From positions 448,001-512,000 of the forward strand of contig OZ241877.1 in assembly GCA_965203095.1 (NCBI GenBank): a stretch of 64,000 bases of DNA, written 5' to 3'. The translations under genes and the position numbers were made by a program. A model generated the notes under the pieces. The model was not told the DNA's origin, searched no databases, and worked only from the letters and a program-made list of their open reading frames with translations. Positions 22,827 through 31,215 of the stretch are shown piece by piece (the first letter of the stretch is position 1; each line of letters starts with the position of its first letter). The stretch comes from Bdellovibrionales bacterium. Lineage in GTDB: Bacteria > Bdellovibrionota > Bdellovibrionia > Bdellovibrionales > UBA1609.

Positions 22827-24215
22827 TTATGGCTTGGGGCTGATCATGTCTTTTGGGGAAATCCACTTGTCAAACTCTTCTTCAGTCACAAAGCCTGACT
22901 GAACCGCTGTCTCTTTTAAGGTTTTTCCACTTTTAAAAGCGGATTGGGCAATTTTTGTGGCTTTGTCATAGCCAATATGTGGGTTGAGTGCCGTGATCAG
23001 CATGAGGCTACTATCTAAATTCTGTTTTATTTTCTTTTTATTGGCTTTTAAACCTTTAAGACATTTTTCTCGAAAATTGTTTAAGCCATCATTTAAGAGG
23101 CGAGCAGAGCGGAGGCTGTTAAAAAAAATAAGAGGCTTATAAGTGTTCAGTTGAAATTGCCCGCCGGCTCCTCCTAAGCTCACAGCTAAATCTTGCCCCA
23201 TCACCTGAGCACAAAGCATACTTAAGGCTTCGCATTGGCTGGGGTTGACTTTACCGGGCATAATGGAACTTCCCGGTTCATTGACTGGCAAAGTAAGCTC
23301 CCCTAAGCCAGCACGAGGCCCACTGGCTAAAAGGCGAATGTCATTGGCTACTTTAGTCAAGCTGACAGCTAAGGTTTTAAATGATCCGCTCAGCTGAACA
23401 AAGCTATCGTGGCTGGCTTGGGCTGAAAAATTATTTTTTGCGGGTTGGAAGGGATAACCGGTTTTTTCTTTCAAAAAAGCACAAACCTTTTCGCTAAAAT
23501 GAGACCAGCTATTGAGGCCCGTTCCTACGGCTGTTCCTCCAATAGGGAGACTCAATAGTTCGGCAAGGCTTTTTTCTATCCGGCTTTTATTGAGCTGGAT
23601 TTGTTGGTGAAAGGCGGAAAATTCCTGCCCCAACGACATAGGGACAGCATCCATTAAATGGGTTCGCCCTATTTTTATAATGTCTTTAAACTCTTCTGTT
23701 TTGGCTTTTATTGCCTCAGAGAAGAGGCTCAGTGCGGGAATGAGATTTTTTTGAGTAAAAATATAGAGGGCTATCCTCATAGCCGAGGGGACTGTGTCGT
23801 TAGAGGATTGGCCTTTATTCACATCATCATTGGGATGGATACTTTTATCACCGACTTTTCCTTTAGAAAGTTGAATGGCCCGATTGGCAATCACCTCGTT
23901 GACATTCATATTGCTTTGTGTCCCGCTTCCTGTTTGCCATACACTTAAGGGGAAGTGATCGTTTAGAAGACCCTGCTGGATCTCTACGGCGGATTTTATA
24001 ATCCATTGGGCTTTTTTTTTGTCCAACAGACCTTTTTCTAAATGAGCTTTAGCTGAGCATTCTTTGATAAGGGCTAAGGCTTTAATCAGCTCTATGGGCA
24101 TGAGGTCTTGGCCGATTTTAAAATTTTTTAACGACCTTTGGCTTTGCGCTCCCCAGAGTTTGTCTGCGGGGATACTCACTTCGCCCAAGCTGTCTTTTTC
24201 TGTCCGGGTCTTCAA
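22827..24215 (-). CDS. fumC: Class II fumarate hydratase
   Basis: WQTGSGTQSNMN, HPNDDVN, GSSIMPGKVNP. Confidence 0.97.
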   Translation of the reverse strand: MKTRTEKDSLGEVSIPADKLWGAQSQRSLKNFKIGQDLMPIELIKALALIKECSAKAHLEKGLLDKKKAQWIIKSAVEIQQGLLNDHFPLSVWQTGSGTQSNMNVNEVIANRAIQLSKGKVGDKSIHPNDDVNKGQSSNDTVPSAMRIALYIFTQKNLIPALSLFSEAIKAKTEEFKDIIKIGRTHLMDAVPMSLGQEFSAFHQQIQLNKSRIEKSLAELLSLPIGGTAVGTGLNSWSHFSEKVCAFLKEKTGYPFQPAKNNFSAQASHDSFVQLSGSFKTLAVSLTKVANDIRLLASGPRAGLGELTLPVNEPGSSIMPGKVNPSQCEALSMLCAQVMGQDLAVSLGGAGGQFQLNTYKPLIFFNSLRSARLLNDGLNNFREKCLKGLKANKKKIKQNLDSSLMLITALNPHIGYDKATKIAQSAFKSGKTLKETAVQSGFVTEEEFDKWISPKDMISPKP

Positions 24216-24310
24216 CAGTGCCTCCTTATTTTATTAAGATGGGTTCATGAGTATTTTCCTCATATTTTTGATAATAGCAAGGTTCATGAATCATAATTTG
24301 TGAGAGATTG

Positions 24311-24337
24311 TTGTTCCTGCCTTGAGTGGGAATCCAG
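24311..24337. repeat. REP-like palindrome
   Basis: TTGTTCCTGCCTTGAGTGGGAATCCAG. Confidence 0.6.
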
Positions 24338-24374
24338 AAAAGCCTGTTCTCGTAAAAACAGGGGTTTTTCTCGC

Positions 24375-24482
24375 AAAAAATCTACATTTAATGGATCGCA
24401 CAAGCAAAAAGTCCAGCTTGTTCGGGACGGCAATACCTTGGACCCTCACCGCTGGCTTTTGCTTGTGCGATAAAGAACAGAG
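24375..24482. repeat. ~108-bp long-stem hairpin repeat, copy A
   Basis: Near-identical to 51676-51782; arms ATCGCACAAGCAAAA..CCAGC / GCTGG..TTTTGCTTGTGCGAT. Confidence 0.85.
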
Positions 24483-24532
24483 ATTTTTTATAGGCAATTT
24501 TTTAGTTTTTTTGCCTGATCTGGCTTTTTTTC

Positions 24533-24560
24533 TAAAGTTTTTTAAACAAAAAACCGATAG
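24533..24560 (+). promoter_or_regulatory. sigma28 (FliA)-like promoter
   Basis: TAAAGTTT-N12-ACCGATAG versus consensus TAAAGTTT-N11-GCCGATAA, 9 nt before ATG 24570. Confidence 0.6.
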
Positions 24561-24569
24561 GTCTTTATA

Positions 24570-27288
24570 ATGAAGAAAAATAGACCCTTGGAAAGTTTGC
24601 CAAAAAGCTCCCTAAGCTTTTTAGCTCCCGTGAAAACGGGAATCCAGAAATCTTTTCCGCAAAAACTTATTGAAAAGTCTTATTCCTTAGCTTTTTGCCC
24701 AAAGGCCATTTCATTTCGGGACGGTAAATTTACCCCCCCCCCCCCCCCCCGAAAAACGCTGTAAATTCAATAGTTTAAAGCATTTTAAACACAAAAAAAC
24801 TTTTCTTTTAAATAATAAAGGCTTTTCTATTACCGGTGTTATGGTGGCCTCCACTATTGGGGTTATAGCCATGACGGGCATGGCTAAACATGCGGCTTTG
24901 ATAGCCCAACAGCAAAAACAACTTAATCAGGAAAGGGAGCTGAATGCTTTTTGGGAAAGGTTTGGGACTGAAACTGATTGTAAGGAAACAATAAAAGGCT
25001 GGCTCAATCAGAATACAGCTCCTAACTATCCAGCCCCTACAAGTGCTCAAAAAGCTAAGTTAGCAGAGGGGACTGAAGGCAATGAGATAGAAATCAAAAT
25101 CATAAAGAAGTCAGCCAGCTCTAATCTTTTAGATGTTCATGACACTACAAACATTTTTAGGCGATATGGTTTTACTCCCCGCTTTTTTGTTTTGAGATGT
25201 AATCCAGCAGACAATGGGGGGAGTTGTGATTGTCGGACTTCTGCTCATACCTATTCAGGCGGGGCTTGTAAAAAAACTTGGATGCTTATCCCTGGTGTTC
25301 AAAGGGGAATGACTTTTATTAGAGGAAGGGTTTTGAATTTAGATATTGAGTGGTCGTCTGCTCCTGATAGCACTTATACTAATTTTGATTGCACTAAAAT
25401 AGGAACAACAGGGGGCAAAAACCGCTGTTATAAAGCGGAGGCAACTGGGAGCAGAAGAACCCTTGCTGGATGTGGTAGCACACAATCACTTGGTGGCACA
25501 GGCACAACCGCTTTTGGTAATGATGCGGGCCTGTCGGCTACTATCACGGGGTCTGAAAATAATTTTTTTGGTAAAGGAGTTGGTGGAAGTGCCACAGTGG
25601 CTGGGCACTACAATACTTTTTTAGGATTTGCTGGATATAGGGCCAAAGTGGACGGGACATATAATAATTTTTATGGGAACCAGGCTGGCAGAGAGTCCAC
25701 AGTGGCAGGCGGGCACAATCTTTTTATTGGGTATTATGCAGGGAATAAGGCTACAGTTAGCGGGGATGGCAATCATTTTGTTGGCAGACAAGCTGGCTAT
25801 CAAGCCACTTTGGCCGGGAGTGCCAGTCATTTTTTTGGTAATCAAGCGGGATATAAAACAACGGTGACTTCAGGTTCAAGCAACACTTTTGTTGGCACTA
25901 ATGCTGGCAGAGAAGCCACAATCTCAGCCGGTGGTAATCATTTTTTTGGGGACAATGCTGGGAAAAAAGCCACAGTGAGCGGAGGACAAAATCATTTTAT
26001 TGGTGATCATGCCGGCCAATCCGCTACAGTGGCCGGGGCGAGAAATACCTTCTTAGGGGACAGTGCGGGATGGAATGCGGATATAAGAAGCGGGGCCGAT
26101 GGCAATGTTTTTATTGGGCAGAGTGCGGGAAAAAAAGATCATGGCACAGGCACAGGCGGTTATATATCAGGGGATTTGAATGTCTTTTTAGGGCATGCCG
26201 CCGGCCGGACTGCTAAAGTTTCAGGTGGGTATAATACCTTTTTGGGAGCTGGGGCTGGGGACAAAGCGACTGTCTCAACAAATGCCAACGGCAATACTTT
26301 TTTAGGGCAATATGCGGGGAGCAATCAGTCCTTTTCAAGGAGTGGTGGAACTTATATCCGGGGCAATCAGATCAATCTCAGATCTCCCCGCTCTCAAACA
26401 CATGACGGGATTTTTCTCAATGCAGATAAAAAGATAGAAATCAAAGCTCCCGATGTAAAAATAAAAGCTCAAGGATGGTTATGTCCTGCTGGACAAGTCC
26501 TTAGAGGATTTGACACTTCTGGGAATAAAAATTGTGTGGCCACTGGAGGCACAGGCTGGAAACAAACTTGTTCAGGGGGGCAATACCTAAGAGGTTTTAA
26601 CAGCTCAGGGAATAAGGTTTGTTTTGGAGGGTGTCCAGTCCATCAGAGTTGGAATGGGAGTCAATGTGCGAATCGTTGCCCCACGGGGCAAGCTTGGTCT
26701 GCCACTTGTGGAAATGTATGTATCCCGGTATGTGGGACAGGTCGAATCCGGAACAGGGAATGTGGTAGTTGTAGGGATCTCCGTTGTGGAGATCCAGGAT
26801 ATAACGGACCCTGTGGCCCATCATCCAAAGTTTATAAAAAGAATATTCGTCCCTTTAATGATATGGAAAAGGCTTTGAAGGACATTTTAGAGACTCCCCT
26901 ATTCACTTATTATTTTAAGGATAAAAACAATTTTCCTAAAAAGAAAAGAATGGGAGTGATAGCGGAGGACTTGCCAAAAAACTTACAGCTTAAAGGAAAG
27001 CCTATTGCCCCGGACTGGCCCTCTATCTATGGGACATTGTGGGCCGGGATAAAAGCCCTTCATTCTAAGATAGAAACAAAATTCAAAACTCTCAATTCCA
27101 CAATAGAGGCAAAGTTTAAAGCCCTCAGCAAAACCAACAATGAGTTTAAAAAAGAGTTGGCCAATACTAAACAGGAACTAAAATCAGCCAATGAAAAAAT
27201 AGACAGCCTCTCAAAAGAATTAAAAGAACTAAAGTCCAGCTTTGAGAAAAAAGGACTAAACAAAATAGACAATCAGCCGATAAGATAA
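24570..27288 (+). CDS. Frameshifted (putatively phase-variable) fibre adhesin: prepilin-like N-terminus, Gly-rich repeats, Cys-rich modules, peptidase S74 chaperone and coiled coil
   Basis: The 815-aa ORF at 24841 is open upstream through NNKG|FSITGVMVAS to the C18 tract. ATG 24570 joins this frame after loss of one C. NxFxGxxAG repeats; SSKVYKKNI..GVIAEDLP..YGTLWAGIKAL S74 motif. Confidence 0.8.
24733..24750 (+). repeat. C18 homopolymer tract
   Basis: 18 consecutive C in an AT-rich sequence. Confidence 0.95.
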
Positions 27289-27313
27289 ACAGGAAACCTA
27301 AAACGGAGGGACT

Positions 27314-27868
27314 ATGAAACAAATTATTTTAATCCTTTTATGGATTGCAATCCCAGCTCAGAGCATTGCAATCCCCTTTGATAAAAAAAATTTAAAATAT
27401 AAAAAATCTTTAAAAAAAAGTGATCTCCACTATAAGAAATTAAGAGGTTCACTTCATGATAAGAAACAAACAAAAAAACCAGTTGATCCAACAAAACAAG
27501 CAGAGCTTATTAAGCAAATAAGGAAAGGCAAAAAAGATTTGGCGGGAGCAGACTTGAGAGGGGCAAACTTAGTGAGAACGAACTTACAGAATACAACCTT
27601 GAATTGGGCGGACTTTGAGGGGGCGATCTTAATAAGGGCGAACTTGAGAAGAGCATACATGGAACATGCAAACTTGAGAGGGGCAAAACTGCATGGGGCG
27701 GACTTTGAGGGGGCGATCTTGACAGGGGCGGACTTTAAGGGGGCGATCTTGACAGGGGCAAAATTTAAAGGAACAAACCTAATTTTTGCTTATATAGACT
27801 CAAAATATCGTGACATGATTATGGCCAGCGGAGCATTGAACACAGACAGGATTAACTGGTGGGATTAA
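27314..27868 (+). CDS. Secreted pentapeptide-repeat protein, unit 1
   Basis: GGAGG RBS, signal peptide, A(D/N)Lxx repeats, KYRDMIMxSGALNT tail. Confidence 0.92.
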   Translation: MKQIILILLWIAIPAQSIAIPFDKKNLKYKKSLKKSDLHYKKLRGSLHDKKQTKKPVDPTKQAELIKQIRKGKKDLAGADLRGANLVRTNLQNTTLNWADFEGAILIRANLRRAYMEHANLRGAKLHGADFEGAILTGADFKGAILTGAKFKGTNLIFAYIDSKYRDMIMASGALNTDRINWWD

Positions 27869-28014
27869 GCCTCTAAACCCTCTATTTTTCTCTCTAATCT
27901 TTATCTATATCAAAAGCCTCAGCTATAAAACAAGCTCAGCCCCTTGTGTGAAAAAATTACAATAGACCCTCTAATTCTTTACTTTCCCGGACAATCCTGC
28001 TATAACCAAACACA
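27866..28014 (+). repeat. Array spacer repeat carrying a sigma70-like promoter
   Basis: Copies at about 28546-28693, 29150-29297, 29763-29846 (short), 30303-30441 and 31213-31270 (partial). TTTACT-17-TATAAC at 27978-28006. Confidence 0.9.
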
Positions 28015-28548
28015 ATGAAAATACTATTTAGCCTTATCCTTTTAATGAGCTTGCCGGCTTTTTCTGAAAACACGGAGCCAGTTGATCACACAAAACAAGC
28101 AGAATTGATTAACCAAATCAGACAAGGGGAAAAAGACTTGAGATGGGCAGACTTGAGAGGGGCGAACTTGAAAGGGGCGGACTTATCAAAGACAGACTTG
28201 AGATGGGCAGACTTGAGAGGGGCGAACTTGAAAGGGGCGGACTTATCAAAGACAGACTTGAGATGGGCAGACTTGAGATGGGCAGACTTGAGAGGGGCGA
28301 ACTTGAAAGGGGCGGACTTATCAAAGACAGACTTGAGATGGGCAGACTTAAGAAAGGCAGAACTGGAGGGAGCAAGCTTGTCTAGGGCAGACTTAACAAA
28401 TGCAGACTTGAGATGGGCAGGCTTGGAGGGGGCAACCCTGTATAGGGCAGATTTGACAGAGGCTTTTATGAGCTTAACCTATAAATATCGTGACATGATT
28501 ATGCACAGCGGAGCATTGAACACAGACAAGATTAACTGGATGGATTAA
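28015..28548 (+). CDS. Secreted pentapeptide-repeat protein, unit 2
   Basis: Signal peptide, WADLR/GANLK/GADLS repeats. Confidence 0.92.
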   Translation: MKILFSLILLMSLPAFSENTEPVDHTKQAELINQIRQGEKDLRWADLRGANLKGADLSKTDLRWADLRGANLKGADLSKTDLRWADLRWADLRGANLKGADLSKTDLRWADLRKAELEGASLSRADLTNADLRWAGLEGATLYRADLTEAFMSLTYKYRDMIMHSGALNTDKINWMD

Positions 28549-28693
28549 GCCTCAGACCCCTCTGTTTTTCTCTCTAATCTTTATCTATATCAAAAGCCTC
28601 AGCTATAAAACAAGCTCAGCCCCTTGTGTGAAAAAATTACAATAGACCCTCTAATTCTTTACTTTCCCGGACAATCCTGCTATAACAAACACA

Positions 28694-29152
28694 ATGAAAA
28701 TACTATTTAGCCTTATCCTTTTAATGAGCTTGCCGGCTTTTTCTGAAAACACGGAGCCAGTTGATCACACAAAACAAGCAGAATTGATTAACCAAATCAG
28801 ACAAGGGGAAAAAGACTTGAGATGGGCAGACTTGAGAGGGGCGAACTTGAAAGGGGCGGACTTATCAAAGACAGACTTGAGATGGGCAGACTTGAGAGGG
28901 GCGAACTTGAAAGGGGCGGACTTATCAAAGACAGACTTGAGATGGGCAGACTTAAGAAAGGCAGAACTGGAGGGAGCAAGCTTGTCTAGGGCAGACTTAA
29001 CAAATGCAGACTTGAGATGGGCAGGCTTGGAGGGGGCAACCCTGTATAGGGCAGATTTGACAGAGGCTTTTATGAGCTTAACCTATAAATATCGTGACAT
29101 GATTATGCACAGCGGAGCATTGAACACAGACAAGATTAACTGGATGGATTAA
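28694..29152 (+). CDS. Secreted pentapeptide-repeat protein, unit 3
   Basis: Same protein as unit 2 minus 25 aa of repeats. Confidence 0.92.
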   Translation: MKILFSLILLMSLPAFSENTEPVDHTKQAELINQIRQGEKDLRWADLRGANLKGADLSKTDLRWADLRGANLKGADLSKTDLRWADLRKAELEGASLSRADLTNADLRWAGLEGATLYRADLTEAFMSLTYKYRDMIMHSGALNTDKINWMD

Positions 29153-29297
29153 GCCTCAGACCCCTCTATTTTTCTCTCTAATCTCTATCAATATCAAAGC
29201 CCTCAGCTATAAAACAAGCTCTACCCTTTGTGTGAAAAAATTACAATAGACCCTCTAATTCTTTACTTTCCCGGACAATCCTGCTATAAGACAACCA

Positions 29298-29765
29298 ATG
29301 AAAATACTATTAAGCATTATCCTTTTAATGAACCAGACGGCTTTTTCTGAAAACCCGGAGACAGTTGATCCCACAAAACAAGCAGAATTGATTGAACAAA
29401 TCAGGCAAGGGAAAAAAGACTTAACAGAGGCAAACTTGCAAAAAGCAAACTTGTATAAGGCAGACCTGACATTTGCAAACTTGACAAGGGCAGACTTAAC
29501 AGAGGGATTTTTGATAGGGGGATTTTTGATAGGGGCAAATTTGATAGAGACAAACCTGCAAATGGCTAACCTTGCGGGGGCAAAGTTGATGGGGGCAGAC
29601 TTGACAAAGGCAAACTTGACAAGAGCAATCTTGTATAAAGCAACCTTGACAGGGGCAGACTTTAAAGAGGCTAACTTATTGTATGCTTATATAGACTCAA
29701 AATATCGTGACATGATTATGGACAGCGGAGCATTGAACACAGACAAGATTAACTGGATGGATTAA
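29298..29765 (+). CDS. Secreted pentapeptide-repeat protein, unit 4
   Basis: Same head and tail, divergent pentapeptide core. Confidence 0.92.
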   Translation: MKILLSIILLMNQTAFSENPETVDPTKQAELIEQIRQGKKDLTEANLQKANLYKADLTFANLTRADLTEGFLIGGFLIGANLIETNLQMANLAGAKLMGADLTKANLTRAILYKATLTGADFKEANLLYAYIDSKYRDMIMDSGALNTDKINWMD

Positions 29766-29846
29766 GCTTTTGCCCTTTTTGTGAAAAATTTACAAAAGAC
29801 TCTCTAATTCTTTACTTTCCCGGACAATCCTGCTATAAGACAACCA

Positions 29847-30305
29847 ATGAAAATACTATTAAGCATTATCCTTTTAATGAGCTTGCCGGCTTTTTCTGAA
29901 AACACGGAGCCAGTTGATCACACAAAACAAGCAGAATTGATTAACCAAATCAGACAAGGGGAAAAAGACTTGAGATGGGCAGACTTGAGAGGGGCGAACT
30001 TGAAAGGGGCGGACTTATCAAAGACAGACTTGAGATGGGCAGACTTGAGAGGGGCGAACTTGAAAGGGGCGGACTTATCAAAGACAGACTTGAGATGGGC
30101 AGACTTAAGAAAGGCAGAACTGGAGGGAGCAAGCTTGTCTAGGGCAGACTTACAAACGGCGGACTTGAGATGGGCAGGCTTGGAGGGGGCAACCCTGTAT
30201 AGGGCAGATTTGACAGAGGCTTTTATGAGCTTAACCTATAAATATCGTGACATGATTATGCACAGCGGAGCATTGAACACAGACAAGATTAACTGGAGGG
30301 ATTAA
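29847..30305 (+). CDS. Secreted pentapeptide-repeat protein, unit 5
   Basis: Unit-3-like body with a unit-4-type 5' end. Confidence 0.92.
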   Translation: MKILLSIILLMSLPAFSENTEPVDHTKQAELINQIRQGEKDLRWADLRGANLKGADLSKTDLRWADLRGANLKGADLSKTDLRWADLRKAELEGASLSRADLQTADLRWAGLEGATLYRADLTEAFMSLTYKYRDMIMHSGALNTDKINWRD

Positions 30306-30441
30306 GCCTCTAAACCCTCTATTTTTCTCTCTAATCTTTATCTATATCAAAAGCCTCAGCTATAAAACAAGCTCTGCCCTTTGTGTGAAAAATTTACAAT
30401 AGACTTTACTTTCCCGGACAATTCTGCTATACCCCTACACA

Positions 30442-31215
30442 ATGAACCTACTATTAAGCCTTATTCTTTTAATGAGCTTGCCGGCTTTTGCTAACTGCCG
30501 GAATGTTTTTGAGCCTGATTTAGAACCCGATAAAAAACAGGTAGAGCTGATTAAAAAAATCAGACAAGGGAAAAAAAACTTGGCAAGGGCGAACTTGAGA
30601 GAGGCGAAATTGGCGGGAGCGGACTTGATATTGGCAAAATTGACAGGGGCAGACTTGAGAAAGGCAGACTTGTCAGAGGCGAAATTGTCAGGGGCGAAAT
30701 TGGAGAGGGCGATCTTGCAAGGGGCGAACTTAGAAAGGGCGAACTTGACAAGGGCAGACTTGGGAAGGGCAGACTTGTATAGGGCAGACTTGTATAGGGC
30801 AGACTTGAGAGGGGCATTCTTGATAGGGGCAGACTTGAGAAGAGCAATCCTGACAGAGGCAAACTTGAGAGGAGCAGACTTGAGAAGAGCAATCCTGACA
30901 GAGGCAAACTTGAGAGGAGCAGACTTGATAGGGGCAGACTTGAGAAGAGCAATCCTGACAGAGGCAAACTTGATAGGAGCAGACTTGAGAAGAGCAATCC
31001 TGACAGAGGCAAACTTGATAGGAGCAGACTTGAGAAGAGCAATCCTGACAGAGGCAAACTTGAGAGGAGCAGACTTGAGAGGAGCTATCATAGACGAACA
31101 TTATCGTGACATGATTATGAACAGCGGAGCATTGAACATAGGCTTGATTAACTGGGTGGATAAGAAAAAGAAAGACTTGGAAGGGGCAGACATGAGAATA
31201 CCAATTAGGCCCTAA
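30442..31215 (+). CDS. Secreted pentapeptide-repeat protein, unit 6
   Basis: Signal peptide, expanded GADLR-RAILT-EANL repeats, YRDMIMNSGALN tail. Confidence 0.92.
   Translation: MNLLLSLILLMSLPAFANCRNVFEPDLEPDKKQVELIKKIRQGKKNLARANLREAKLAGADLILAKLTGADLRKADLSEAKLSGAKLERAILQGANLERANLTRADLGRADLYRADLYRADLRGAFLIGADLRRAILTEANLRGADLRRAILTEANLRGADLIGADLRRAILTEANLIGADLRRAILTEANLIGADLRRAILTEANLRGADLRGAIIDEHYRDMIMNSGALNIGLINWVDKKKKDLEGADMRIPIRP

Follow-up and report, generated by a model that had tools for sequence, protein, structure and literature searches.

Several described systems bear on the fibre gene examined here, which lies in a 64-kb window (the whole stretch of DNA that was analysed, 64,000 nucleotides of a contig from a Bdellovibrionales bacterium) and carries a run of 18 cytosines, C18, in its predicted leader. 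Our statements about these systems refer to the passages cited. In Neisseria, pilC has a poly-G tract within the signal sequence, where frameshifting turns the gene ON or OFF (PMC13017665), and PilC is not a pilin (PMC8179133). The opa family consists of dispersed paralogues, each with a repeat in its leader region, that switch independently and undergo intragenomic recombination (PMC3960869). Modular pilins that join a pilin module to an S74 module (IPR012902-IPR030392) are already on record, as are the trimeric tip pilins CofB and TcpB, and the CofB trimer is predicted to sit at the pilus tip (PMC8179133). The MAT fibres of Bdellovibrio bacteriovorus are multi-gene, phage-tail-like and trimeric, have an S74 chaperone and variable tips, and have been proposed to recognise prey (PMC10769870). 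The attack-phase FliA consensus of the same species is printed as TTAAG-N16-CCGATA (PMC3627812).

The locus resembles pilC1 and pilC2 in placing a homopolymeric G/C tract in the signal-peptide region of paralogous type IV pilus adhesin genes, where it would be removed with the leader. It differs from pilC, whose product carries an ordinary signal peptide, in that the repeat is a coding-strand poly-C tract of 14-22 nucleotides in the class III leader of a pilin-fused fibre, and this leader, at 70-129 amino acids, consists partly of dispersed repeats. Like opa, the family has several paralogues with a leader repeat and shows diversity derived from recombination; unlike opa, which uses CTCTT pentamers and encodes outer-membrane beta-barrels in a human pathogen, it has mono- or dinucleotide repeats and encodes pilin-fibre proteins. 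As in modular pilins, a class III-type signal peptide is followed by a putative pilin module and a large extra module. In the relevant passages of PMC8179133, S74 figures as a predicted peptidase whose role is unknown, and phase variation does not come up; the family described here mostly has Gly at position +5. Dataset S1 of PMC8179133 may list such pilin-S74 proteins.

The S74 chaperone end, the organisation as a fibre gene family and the bacterial order are shared with MAT fibres. However, the MAT trait is a beta-rich domain of ~130 amino acids right after the signal peptide, where the present protein has a modelled 49-residue helix and a head, and a phmmer search against the MAT chains in the Protein Data Bank (PDB) gave no match. 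Given this dissimilar N-terminus, we have not filed the family as MAT. The MAT passages of PMC10769870 mention no repeat switch. As in the Bdellovibrio attack-phase regulon, both the FliA promoter motif and a FliA gene are present. A literature search of paper listings, which covered a minority of subscription journals and no supplements, turned up no report of phase variation through repeats, whether in Bdellovibrionota or in class III leaders. Compared with pilC and opa, the locus is set apart by a class III leader that is stretched to 84 amino acids and contains dispersed repeats, by the mosaic nature of its pilin-S74 family, and by the use of two repeat types at a single site.

Reading frames, promoter and leader at the C18 tract

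We interpret the fibre locus as an ON/OFF phase-variable contingency locus, with a probability of roughly 0.8. Its features are listed below, where the bar in G|F marks the predicted class III cleavage position.

24315..24510 (no strand): dispersed intergenic repeats 5' of the promoter, ~15-110 blastn hits per position in the same genome
24533..24559 (+): FliA (sigma28)-type promoter motif TAAAG-N16-CCGATA, which precedes all four intact paralogues, this one included
24570..24732 (+): start codon and basic pre-tract leader, 54 codons plus 1 nt, largely dispersed repeats
24733..24750 (+): C18 tract, the proposed slippage element; lengths of 2 mod 3 keep the frame
24751..24822 (+): basic post-tract leader of 24 amino acids, whose last residue is the class III Gly
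24762..24764 (+): TAA closing the 64-aa OFF peptide at C18
24823..25420 (+): predicted mature N-terminus, comprising a hydrophobic helix that begins FSITG, with Gly at +5, and an alpha/beta head that looks pilin-like in the AlphaFold2 model
25421..26820 (+): Gly/Asn-rich fibre repeats, then a distal Cys-rich part that varies; the paralogues are mosaic here
26821..27288 (+): S74 chaperone domain (Peptidase S74, PF13884; E 5.8e-07, which passes the cut-off), C-terminal coiled coil and stop

The tract is the only C/G run of at least nine nucleotides in the window. At C18, the frame of ATG 24570 encodes 64 amino acids. The frame of the 815-aa open reading frame (ORF) is open from 24691 and reads PPPPPPEKRC...NNKG|FSITGVMVASTIGVIAM across the tract and class III site, or more fully PPPPPP-EKRCKF...NNKG|FSITGVMVAST. 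Between 24691 and 24841 it contains no ATG, GTG or TTG codon, and its sole near-cognate codon, ATT at 24829, lies past the cleavage site. When recomputed at C14, C17, C20 or C23, the gene encodes a prepilin-fibre-S74 protein of 904-907 amino acids (905 at C17, 906 at C20); other tract lengths give 63-70 amino acids, with the stop 3-8 codons from the tract. The frame after the tract is uninterrupted for 845 codons. These results reproduce the first-pass annotation, which had carried the frame of ATG 24570 across C18 to a stop at 24764, had found the 815-aa frame open from 24691 with no ATG before 24841, and had predicted a fusion of ~905 amino acids at C17 or C20; the lack of starts extends further, to GTG and TTG.

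Long C/G runs far exceed chance in this genome and cluster at the fibre genes. The chromosome holds eight C/G runs of at least 14 nucleotides (14, 14, 17, 18, 18, 18, 21 and 22), where about 0.004 would be expected from the decay of shorter runs, and its longest A/T runs are of 10. Among 1059 ATG-started ORFs of at least 200 amino acids, six have a C/G run of at least 12 near the start; five of these are the fibre genes, and the sixth encodes a TadG-like pilin. An Rfam scan of 24150-24950 gave no match.

ATG 24570 sits 10 nt past CCGATA, a distance at which the fibre mRNA is probably leaderless or nearly so. The motif deviates by one mismatch from the printed attack-phase consensus, and a FliA gene (TIGR02479, above cut-off) is present at G000:C1:1163775-1164443, in agreement with the FliA-like promoter that had been proposed for this position. 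Genome-wide, the motif occurs 18 times at spacer 16, and 6, 1 and 1 times at spacers 15, 14 and 17. In 11 of the 18 spacer-16 copies, the ATG of an ORF of at least 100 amino acids lies 7-11 nt downstream (a count that leaves out the window locus and copy B, whose ORFs the tract cuts short), and ATG 24570 is thus a typical start for this promoter class. A sigma70-like TAAACA-17-TATAAT that overlaps ATG 24570 was rejected as the promoter, because TATAAT is not kept in the paralogues whereas CCGATA is.

The pre-tract leaders of the family in this genome, including that of a relic at C1:17908, measure 139, 163, 190, 271 and 334 nt; all are stop-free and all are 1 mod 3. In base shuffles of four of them, the chance of a stop-free leader is 0.1-4% each, and these values are not independent given the common ancestry of the leaders. 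At C17 the whole leader has 84 amino acids, with 19 K/R, 4 D/E and no hydrophobic segment (best 19-aa hydropathy 0.51). A GTG 103 nt before the tract shares the frame of ATG 24570, so that a later transcription start would leave the switch logic unchanged. In none of the four intact copies does a standard start codon intervene between tract and G|F. The leader had also been said to contain repeat-derived sequence, and blastn indeed finds ~24600-24730 to be built of dispersed repeats (~30-90 hits per position in the same genome).

The repeats of 24315-24510 and 24600-24730 include a palindromic CCCGTGAAAACGGGAATC unit with 57 near-exact copies in the genome, which we take to resemble REP/dRS3-type elements. 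Dispersed repeats, this unit included, are abundant and are inserted in frame within the fibre leaders.

Repeats in paralogues and across the genus

The source genome (G000, 1.8 Mb) has two contigs and 38% GC, and the window lies on its 1.78-Mb contig C1. S74 is matched six times: five of the genes are full-length, and the sixth is a truncated duplicate next to a transposase. A genome-wide look for other poly-C/G tracts before class III sites, which the first-pass annotation had put forward as a check, finds the tract in all five full fibre genes, 24 codons before G|F.

C1:981082: C14, in frame, 943 amino acids from the equivalent ATG
C1:1223165: C17, in frame, 887 amino acids from the equivalent ATG
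C1:191449: C22, out of frame
Window locus: C18, out of frame in the assembly
C1:113725 (copy A): C18, broken, with promoter and ATG lost and a second frameshift at G|F
C1:17908: relic cassette

The two in-frame paralogues show that the fused protein is a real ORF. With C14 and C17 in frame and C18 and C22 out of frame among the four intact paralogues, tract length sets the frame.

Damaged members of the family include copy A, the relic cassette and the truncated copy beside the transposase. The window gene could likewise be a pseudogene in decay, or serve as a silent source of sequence for recombination, and its tract could then be a side effect of repeats spreading through a reduced genome. 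Its mosaic composition fits this idea: in 120-nt windows, its nearest paralogue alternates between B (0.96-1.00, in long stretches), A (0.89-0.95) and E (0.94-1.00). However, the window copy retains its promoter, ATG, open leader and uninterrupted post-tract frame, and two chemical types of repeat at the same position in several species argue for selection, so we regard decay as the most improbable of the alternatives considered here.

The evidence from several species comes from five near-complete genomes of the genus (one or two contigs each), in which all matches to the protein profile were taken as members, regardless of any tract. A repeat precedes G|F or G|S in 28 of the 37 matches.

G000: 5 of 5 with a repeat before the class III site
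G008: 4 of 6 (C9-C12)
G009: 19 of 22, of which 6 poly-C/G and 13 (TC)n of 18-102 nt
G007 and G002: 0 of 3 and 0 of 1

Eleven of the (TC)n genes of G009, whose tracts encode Ser-Leu, were scored by script (5 in frame from the nearest shared ATG, 5 out of frame and 1 dependent on the start chosen), and the remaining 2 of the 13 are out of frame by hand count. Among poly-C/G genes with an intact site, 7 of 18 are in frame from an upstream start. G007 contains 6 prepilin genes of the Glu5 type whose runs span C18-C26; 4 of these runs are in frame and 2 are not. Runs of at least 12 C/G number 17 in G007, 16 in G009 and 3 in G008, and 6, 6 and 1 of these, respectively, stand before a class III site. 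Sequencing error or decay can hardly account for two repeat chemistries at the same position within a single family. The earlier proposal of an ON/OFF switch in a disposable leader is therefore supported by the in-frame paralogues, the stop-free leaders, the lack of a start between tract and G|F, and the repeats in related species.

The same counts bear on whether the tract tunes expression rather than toggling it, by ribosomal frameshifting on stalled proline codons or by RNA polymerase slippage, such that C18 would be a low state. A single +1 shift would suffice at C18, CCC-C is a +1-prone proline context, and polyproline stalls ribosomes. A title in the reference list of PMC3960869 also pairs ribosomal frameshifting with slipped-strand mispairing at gonococcal opa, which is the title alone. 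However, a programmed shift would fix one frame, whereas the 7 of 18 in frame is near the one in three of free drift, and the Ser-Leu encoded by (TC)n contains no proline. Tuning therefore strikes us as improbable.

In fragmented genomes of the genus, the 5 of 15 profile matches that were examined (G001 2/2, G005 1/8, G006 2/5) had no tract in their leaders. A DNA search of 40 relatives found no orthologous cassette, and most matches were to the C run itself. The post-tract leaders of G000 and G008 share a 9-residue local match, too little to distinguish shared ancestry of the tract from convergence. Long C runs are no general trait of the family: runs of at least 13 C occur in 13 of 60 sampled genomes, some in artefact-like clusters, in a survey where fragmented assemblies may lose long C runs. 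A tandem fibre array in another genome, with C9-C11 after an upstream ATG, was excluded from all counts given further stops or frameshifts before G|F.

Long C/G runs also occur in other settings. A TadG-like pilin gene (SKG|QIAIF) lies behind the same C18 cassette at C1:1414917-1414934 on the minus strand (L080); its upstream frame passes the tract in frame and meets a single TAG 6 codons before the ATG of the gene, and the comparable G007 gene (L045) instead carries a C20 run around codon 688. At C1:1606315-1606335 (L078), a secreted-looking protein begins with a C21 run that is out of frame relative to the nearest ATG; beyond a break, the protein runs on into a subtilase (S8) domain. A G14 at C1:1064072, inside an Asn-synthase/NAD-synthase-like gene, and a G11 at C1:1561419, inside an unknown protein with a signal-like start, are both in frame and are further candidate switches in the ON state. 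The second contig, G000:C2 (L082, 17 kb), is a tandem 1.1-kb unit with G9-G13 runs and no long ORF, and is possibly not part of the bacterial genome. In G007, poly-C runs of 15-17 directly follow TTGACAATTA 30-35 nt before secreted-protein genes (L031:4439, L041:4501 and L044:4515), and are candidate promoter-spacer switches. The same genome has a repeated non-coding element with C16-C32 between TTTA and GAAAAA (L032, L035:2644, L038 and L042:5936); these flanks are those of the window tract, and the frames checked show no long ORF on either side.

A neighbouring gene accompanies the fibre gene in every full copy, since a pentapeptide-repeat-type gene follows all five paralogues. In the window it is:

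27314..27868 (+): partner gene, pentapeptide-repeat protein with signal-like N-terminus (Pfam Pentapeptide)

Its own TAAA-N16-CCGATA site lies inside the end of the fibre gene (element 27257..27868). Six pentapeptide-repeat genes with signal-like N-termini stand in tandem in the window at 27314-31215. Near 1.228-1.231 Mb of C1 (L077:5380-8673), a DDE transposase lies beside a duplicate copy of the fibre E 3' half, truncated and frameshifted, together with its pentapeptide partner.

The predicted pilin-fused fibre and its S74 end

The predicted mature protein of 821 amino acids is arranged as a 21-residue hydrophobic stretch, a head of ~200 amino acids, the repeats, the Cys-rich region, S74 and the coiled coil. 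Its leader is hydrophilic, ends in Gly and is followed by 21 hydrophobic residues (mean hydropathy 1.67 after the class III Gly), as expected of a type IV pilin. However, residue +5 is Gly rather than the canonical Glu. The basic leader and class III-like site that had been noted earlier thus stand as regards basicity, the terminal Gly and the hydrophobic stretch, and fall short as regards Glu5 and the Pfam N_methyl score given below.

A profile of the N-terminal domain recovers 284 clusters at E <=0.001. In the 104 scorable sites among the best 150 of these, residue +5 is Gly in 85, Ser in 9 and Glu in 8, and the missing Glu5 is therefore a trait of the family. The median leader at the same sites is 22 amino acids, and homologues that have no tract have short leaders. 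Processing does not depend on Glu5, whereas the formation of homopolymers does, and mutants at this residue are taken up into mixed filaments (PMC4471445), so that Gly5 excludes a major pilin and not a minor one. This fits a minor subunit, probably located at the tip. Loci of the same fibre family that carry titles come from metagenome-assembled genomes of Bdellovibrionales or Oligoflexia. Annotation pipelines mis-start such genes; protein P0004, for example, begins at a Met within the helix.

The AlphaFold2 model has a 49-residue N-terminal helix followed by beta strands, with a mean pLDDT of 82.5. In a VIA-align fold search nothing came out at Z >=5; the best matches had a Z of at most 3.9, with pilin-family chains at Z 2.8-3.4 (GspK 3.4, an XcpV/W entry 3.2 and pilin 1ay2 2.9). 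Foldseek gave no match at E 0.001, and a PDB sequence search produced one weak coiled-coil match and nothing else. A homotrimer model scored 0.58, against 0.00 for the best of three controls, with at least 80% of contacts shared between runs, a partner pLDDT of at least 74, and contacts mainly at mature residues 201-252, where the fibre starts. Of 30 solved pairs, 20 attain this mark, as does 1 of 23 single chains; the scale is only rough for three copies and our own alignment. The model supports homotrimer binding, with the caveat that it may reflect likeness to solved fibres. In the S74 domain, SSKVYK replaces the SDxxxK motif described in PMC10769870; Ser and Lys are invariant in the five sequences aligned, and the Asp is replaced by Ser.

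Tract lengths in sequencing runs and the proposed switch

Evidence on populations comes from assembled contigs of sequencing runs, and among the pieces listed none spans the stretch. A contig of run X3 has two extra Cs at the tract, giving the in-frame length C20, which is present in no assembled paralogue; its depth is 22.1, compared with 17-30 for single-copy pieces. In run X4, from another sample, an 86-nt contig has seven gaps across 24695-24787. Given that the flanks of the tract are common to four paralogues, neither contig can be assigned to a locus. Tract lengths that the assembly lacks do exist. A run labelled sponge metagenome contained a 457-nt piece of the 5' end of the window gene, 92% identical, and scans of metagenomes for the tract junction and for the S74 motif yielded nothing usable. 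Run X4 shows the 5' end characteristic of broken copy A (window 24823-24956) at a depth of 99.8, against 8.4 for the unique flank, which suggests amplification or another abundant strain in that sample.

The first-pass annotation had called the gene currently OFF. This holds for the assembly consensus, in which C18 is out of frame, and the near single-copy depth of the unassigned C20 contig limits 'OFF' to a consensus state. C18 could instead be a consensus error or minority allele at a locus that is phase variable or fixed ON, with C20 or C17 in most cells. The X3 contig and the intact ORF behind the tract point in this direction, and long homopolymers are generally error-prone in assemblies. 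However, the C20 contig could stem from any of the four flank-sharing paralogues and is not listed in X1, and error alone would account for neither the restriction of tracts to these genes nor the (TC)n repeats of G009. We consider this explanation unlikely, if less so than the others, and it would alter the state of the switch rather than its existence. C18 is, in our judgement, probably the true major allele at the window locus.

Several further observations weigh against the ON/OFF reading. The length evidence consists of assembled contigs; the C20 contig of X3 is not among the listed matches of X1, from the same sample; and the X4 contig, which its gap count suggests is a shorter tract (C11), would belong to another paralogue. 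MutS and MutL are present and would be expected to damp slippage. The leader, 84 amino acids here and up to 129 in paralogues, exceeds both the 6-26 amino acids of known class III leader peptides (PMC4471445) and the family median of 22. Pfam N_methyl matches weakly, below its cut-off (17.3 bits against 21.2, E 0.0036), and NCBIfam TIGR02532 does not match the fibre protein. The paralogues and genus-mates are related, and their counts are not independent observations. In 4 of the 6 G009 poly-C/G genes, an ATG lies between tract and G|F, so that the tract may be outside the coding frame there.

Finally among these points, ATG 24841 could start a leaderless product. Were translation to begin there, the tract would act at the RNA level or be irrelevant, and the product would be an uncleaved, membrane-anchored fibre. 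All five copies have a potential start codon at 24841 (ATG, or GTG in two of them), several G009 genes have an ATG after the tract, and the sigma70-like element overlapping ATG 24570 could be read in the same sense. However, a start at 24841 would drop G|F together with six residues of the helix that are conserved in the family, and no Shine-Dalgarno-like motif precedes it. The paralogues keep CCGATA and not TATAAT, and the GTG upstream of the tract preserves the switch logic even for a later transcript. We judge this downstream start very improbable.

We therefore retain the ON/OFF reading, for which the following mechanism can be proposed. The FliA-type promoter, whose motif is present, would start a near-leaderless mRNA at ATG 24570, and the ribosome would read the long basic leader across the poly-C tract. 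At lengths of 14, 17, 20 or 23, translation would continue through G|F into the pilin-fibre-S74 precursor, and slipped-strand mispairing would alter the length and so turn the gene ON or OFF at random in each lineage. In the ON state, a prepilin peptidase is predicted to cleave the 84-aa leader at its site without Glu5, removing this cytoplasmic segment with the tract, such that the mature protein would be identical at every ON length. The S74 domain would aid trimerisation of the fibre and then cut itself off, and the Glu5-less pilin helices would anchor the trimer on a type IV filament, with the tip as the most probable place. With four intact paralogues switching independently and exchanging segments, the population would display a mixture of adhesive fibres. 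The genome encodes two prepilin peptidases, seven traffic-ATPase matches, four secretins and FliA. One prediction is that prepilin peptidases accept leaders of 80-130 amino acids.

Flagellin was not found in the genome, nor FlhA in any of 10 genomes of the genus searched (85-94% complete), although FliA is retained. Its motif precedes PilT-type ATPase-, Ser/Thr kinase- and XerC-type recombinase-like genes (assigned by eye) and many secreted proteins, and genome-wide the ATG of FliA-motif genes often lies 7-11 nt after the -10 box. Reduced, non-flagellated Bdellovibrionota of sponges have been described as possible predators (PMC9944714). Our broadest interpretation, which we offer tentatively and at less than even odds, is that a small-genome, non-flagellated Bdellovibrionales lineage has made the class III leader into a switch cassette, poly-C or (TC)n, that varies mosaic, tail-fibre-like adhesins of the pilus tip under the attack-phase sigma factor. 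Each cell would then show a random subset of prey-binding fibres, which would amount to predator-side phase variation of prey range.

Repeat-driven phase variation has mostly been studied in pathogens that evade immunity, and here it would act on pilin-fused fibres of predator relatives. If these fibres bind prey, their ON/OFF pattern and segment exchange would provide a handle, readable from sequence, on prey range and predator-prey coevolution in uncultured bacteria. Prey-range phase variation, if true, would be a bacterial counterpart of host-range switching in phages.

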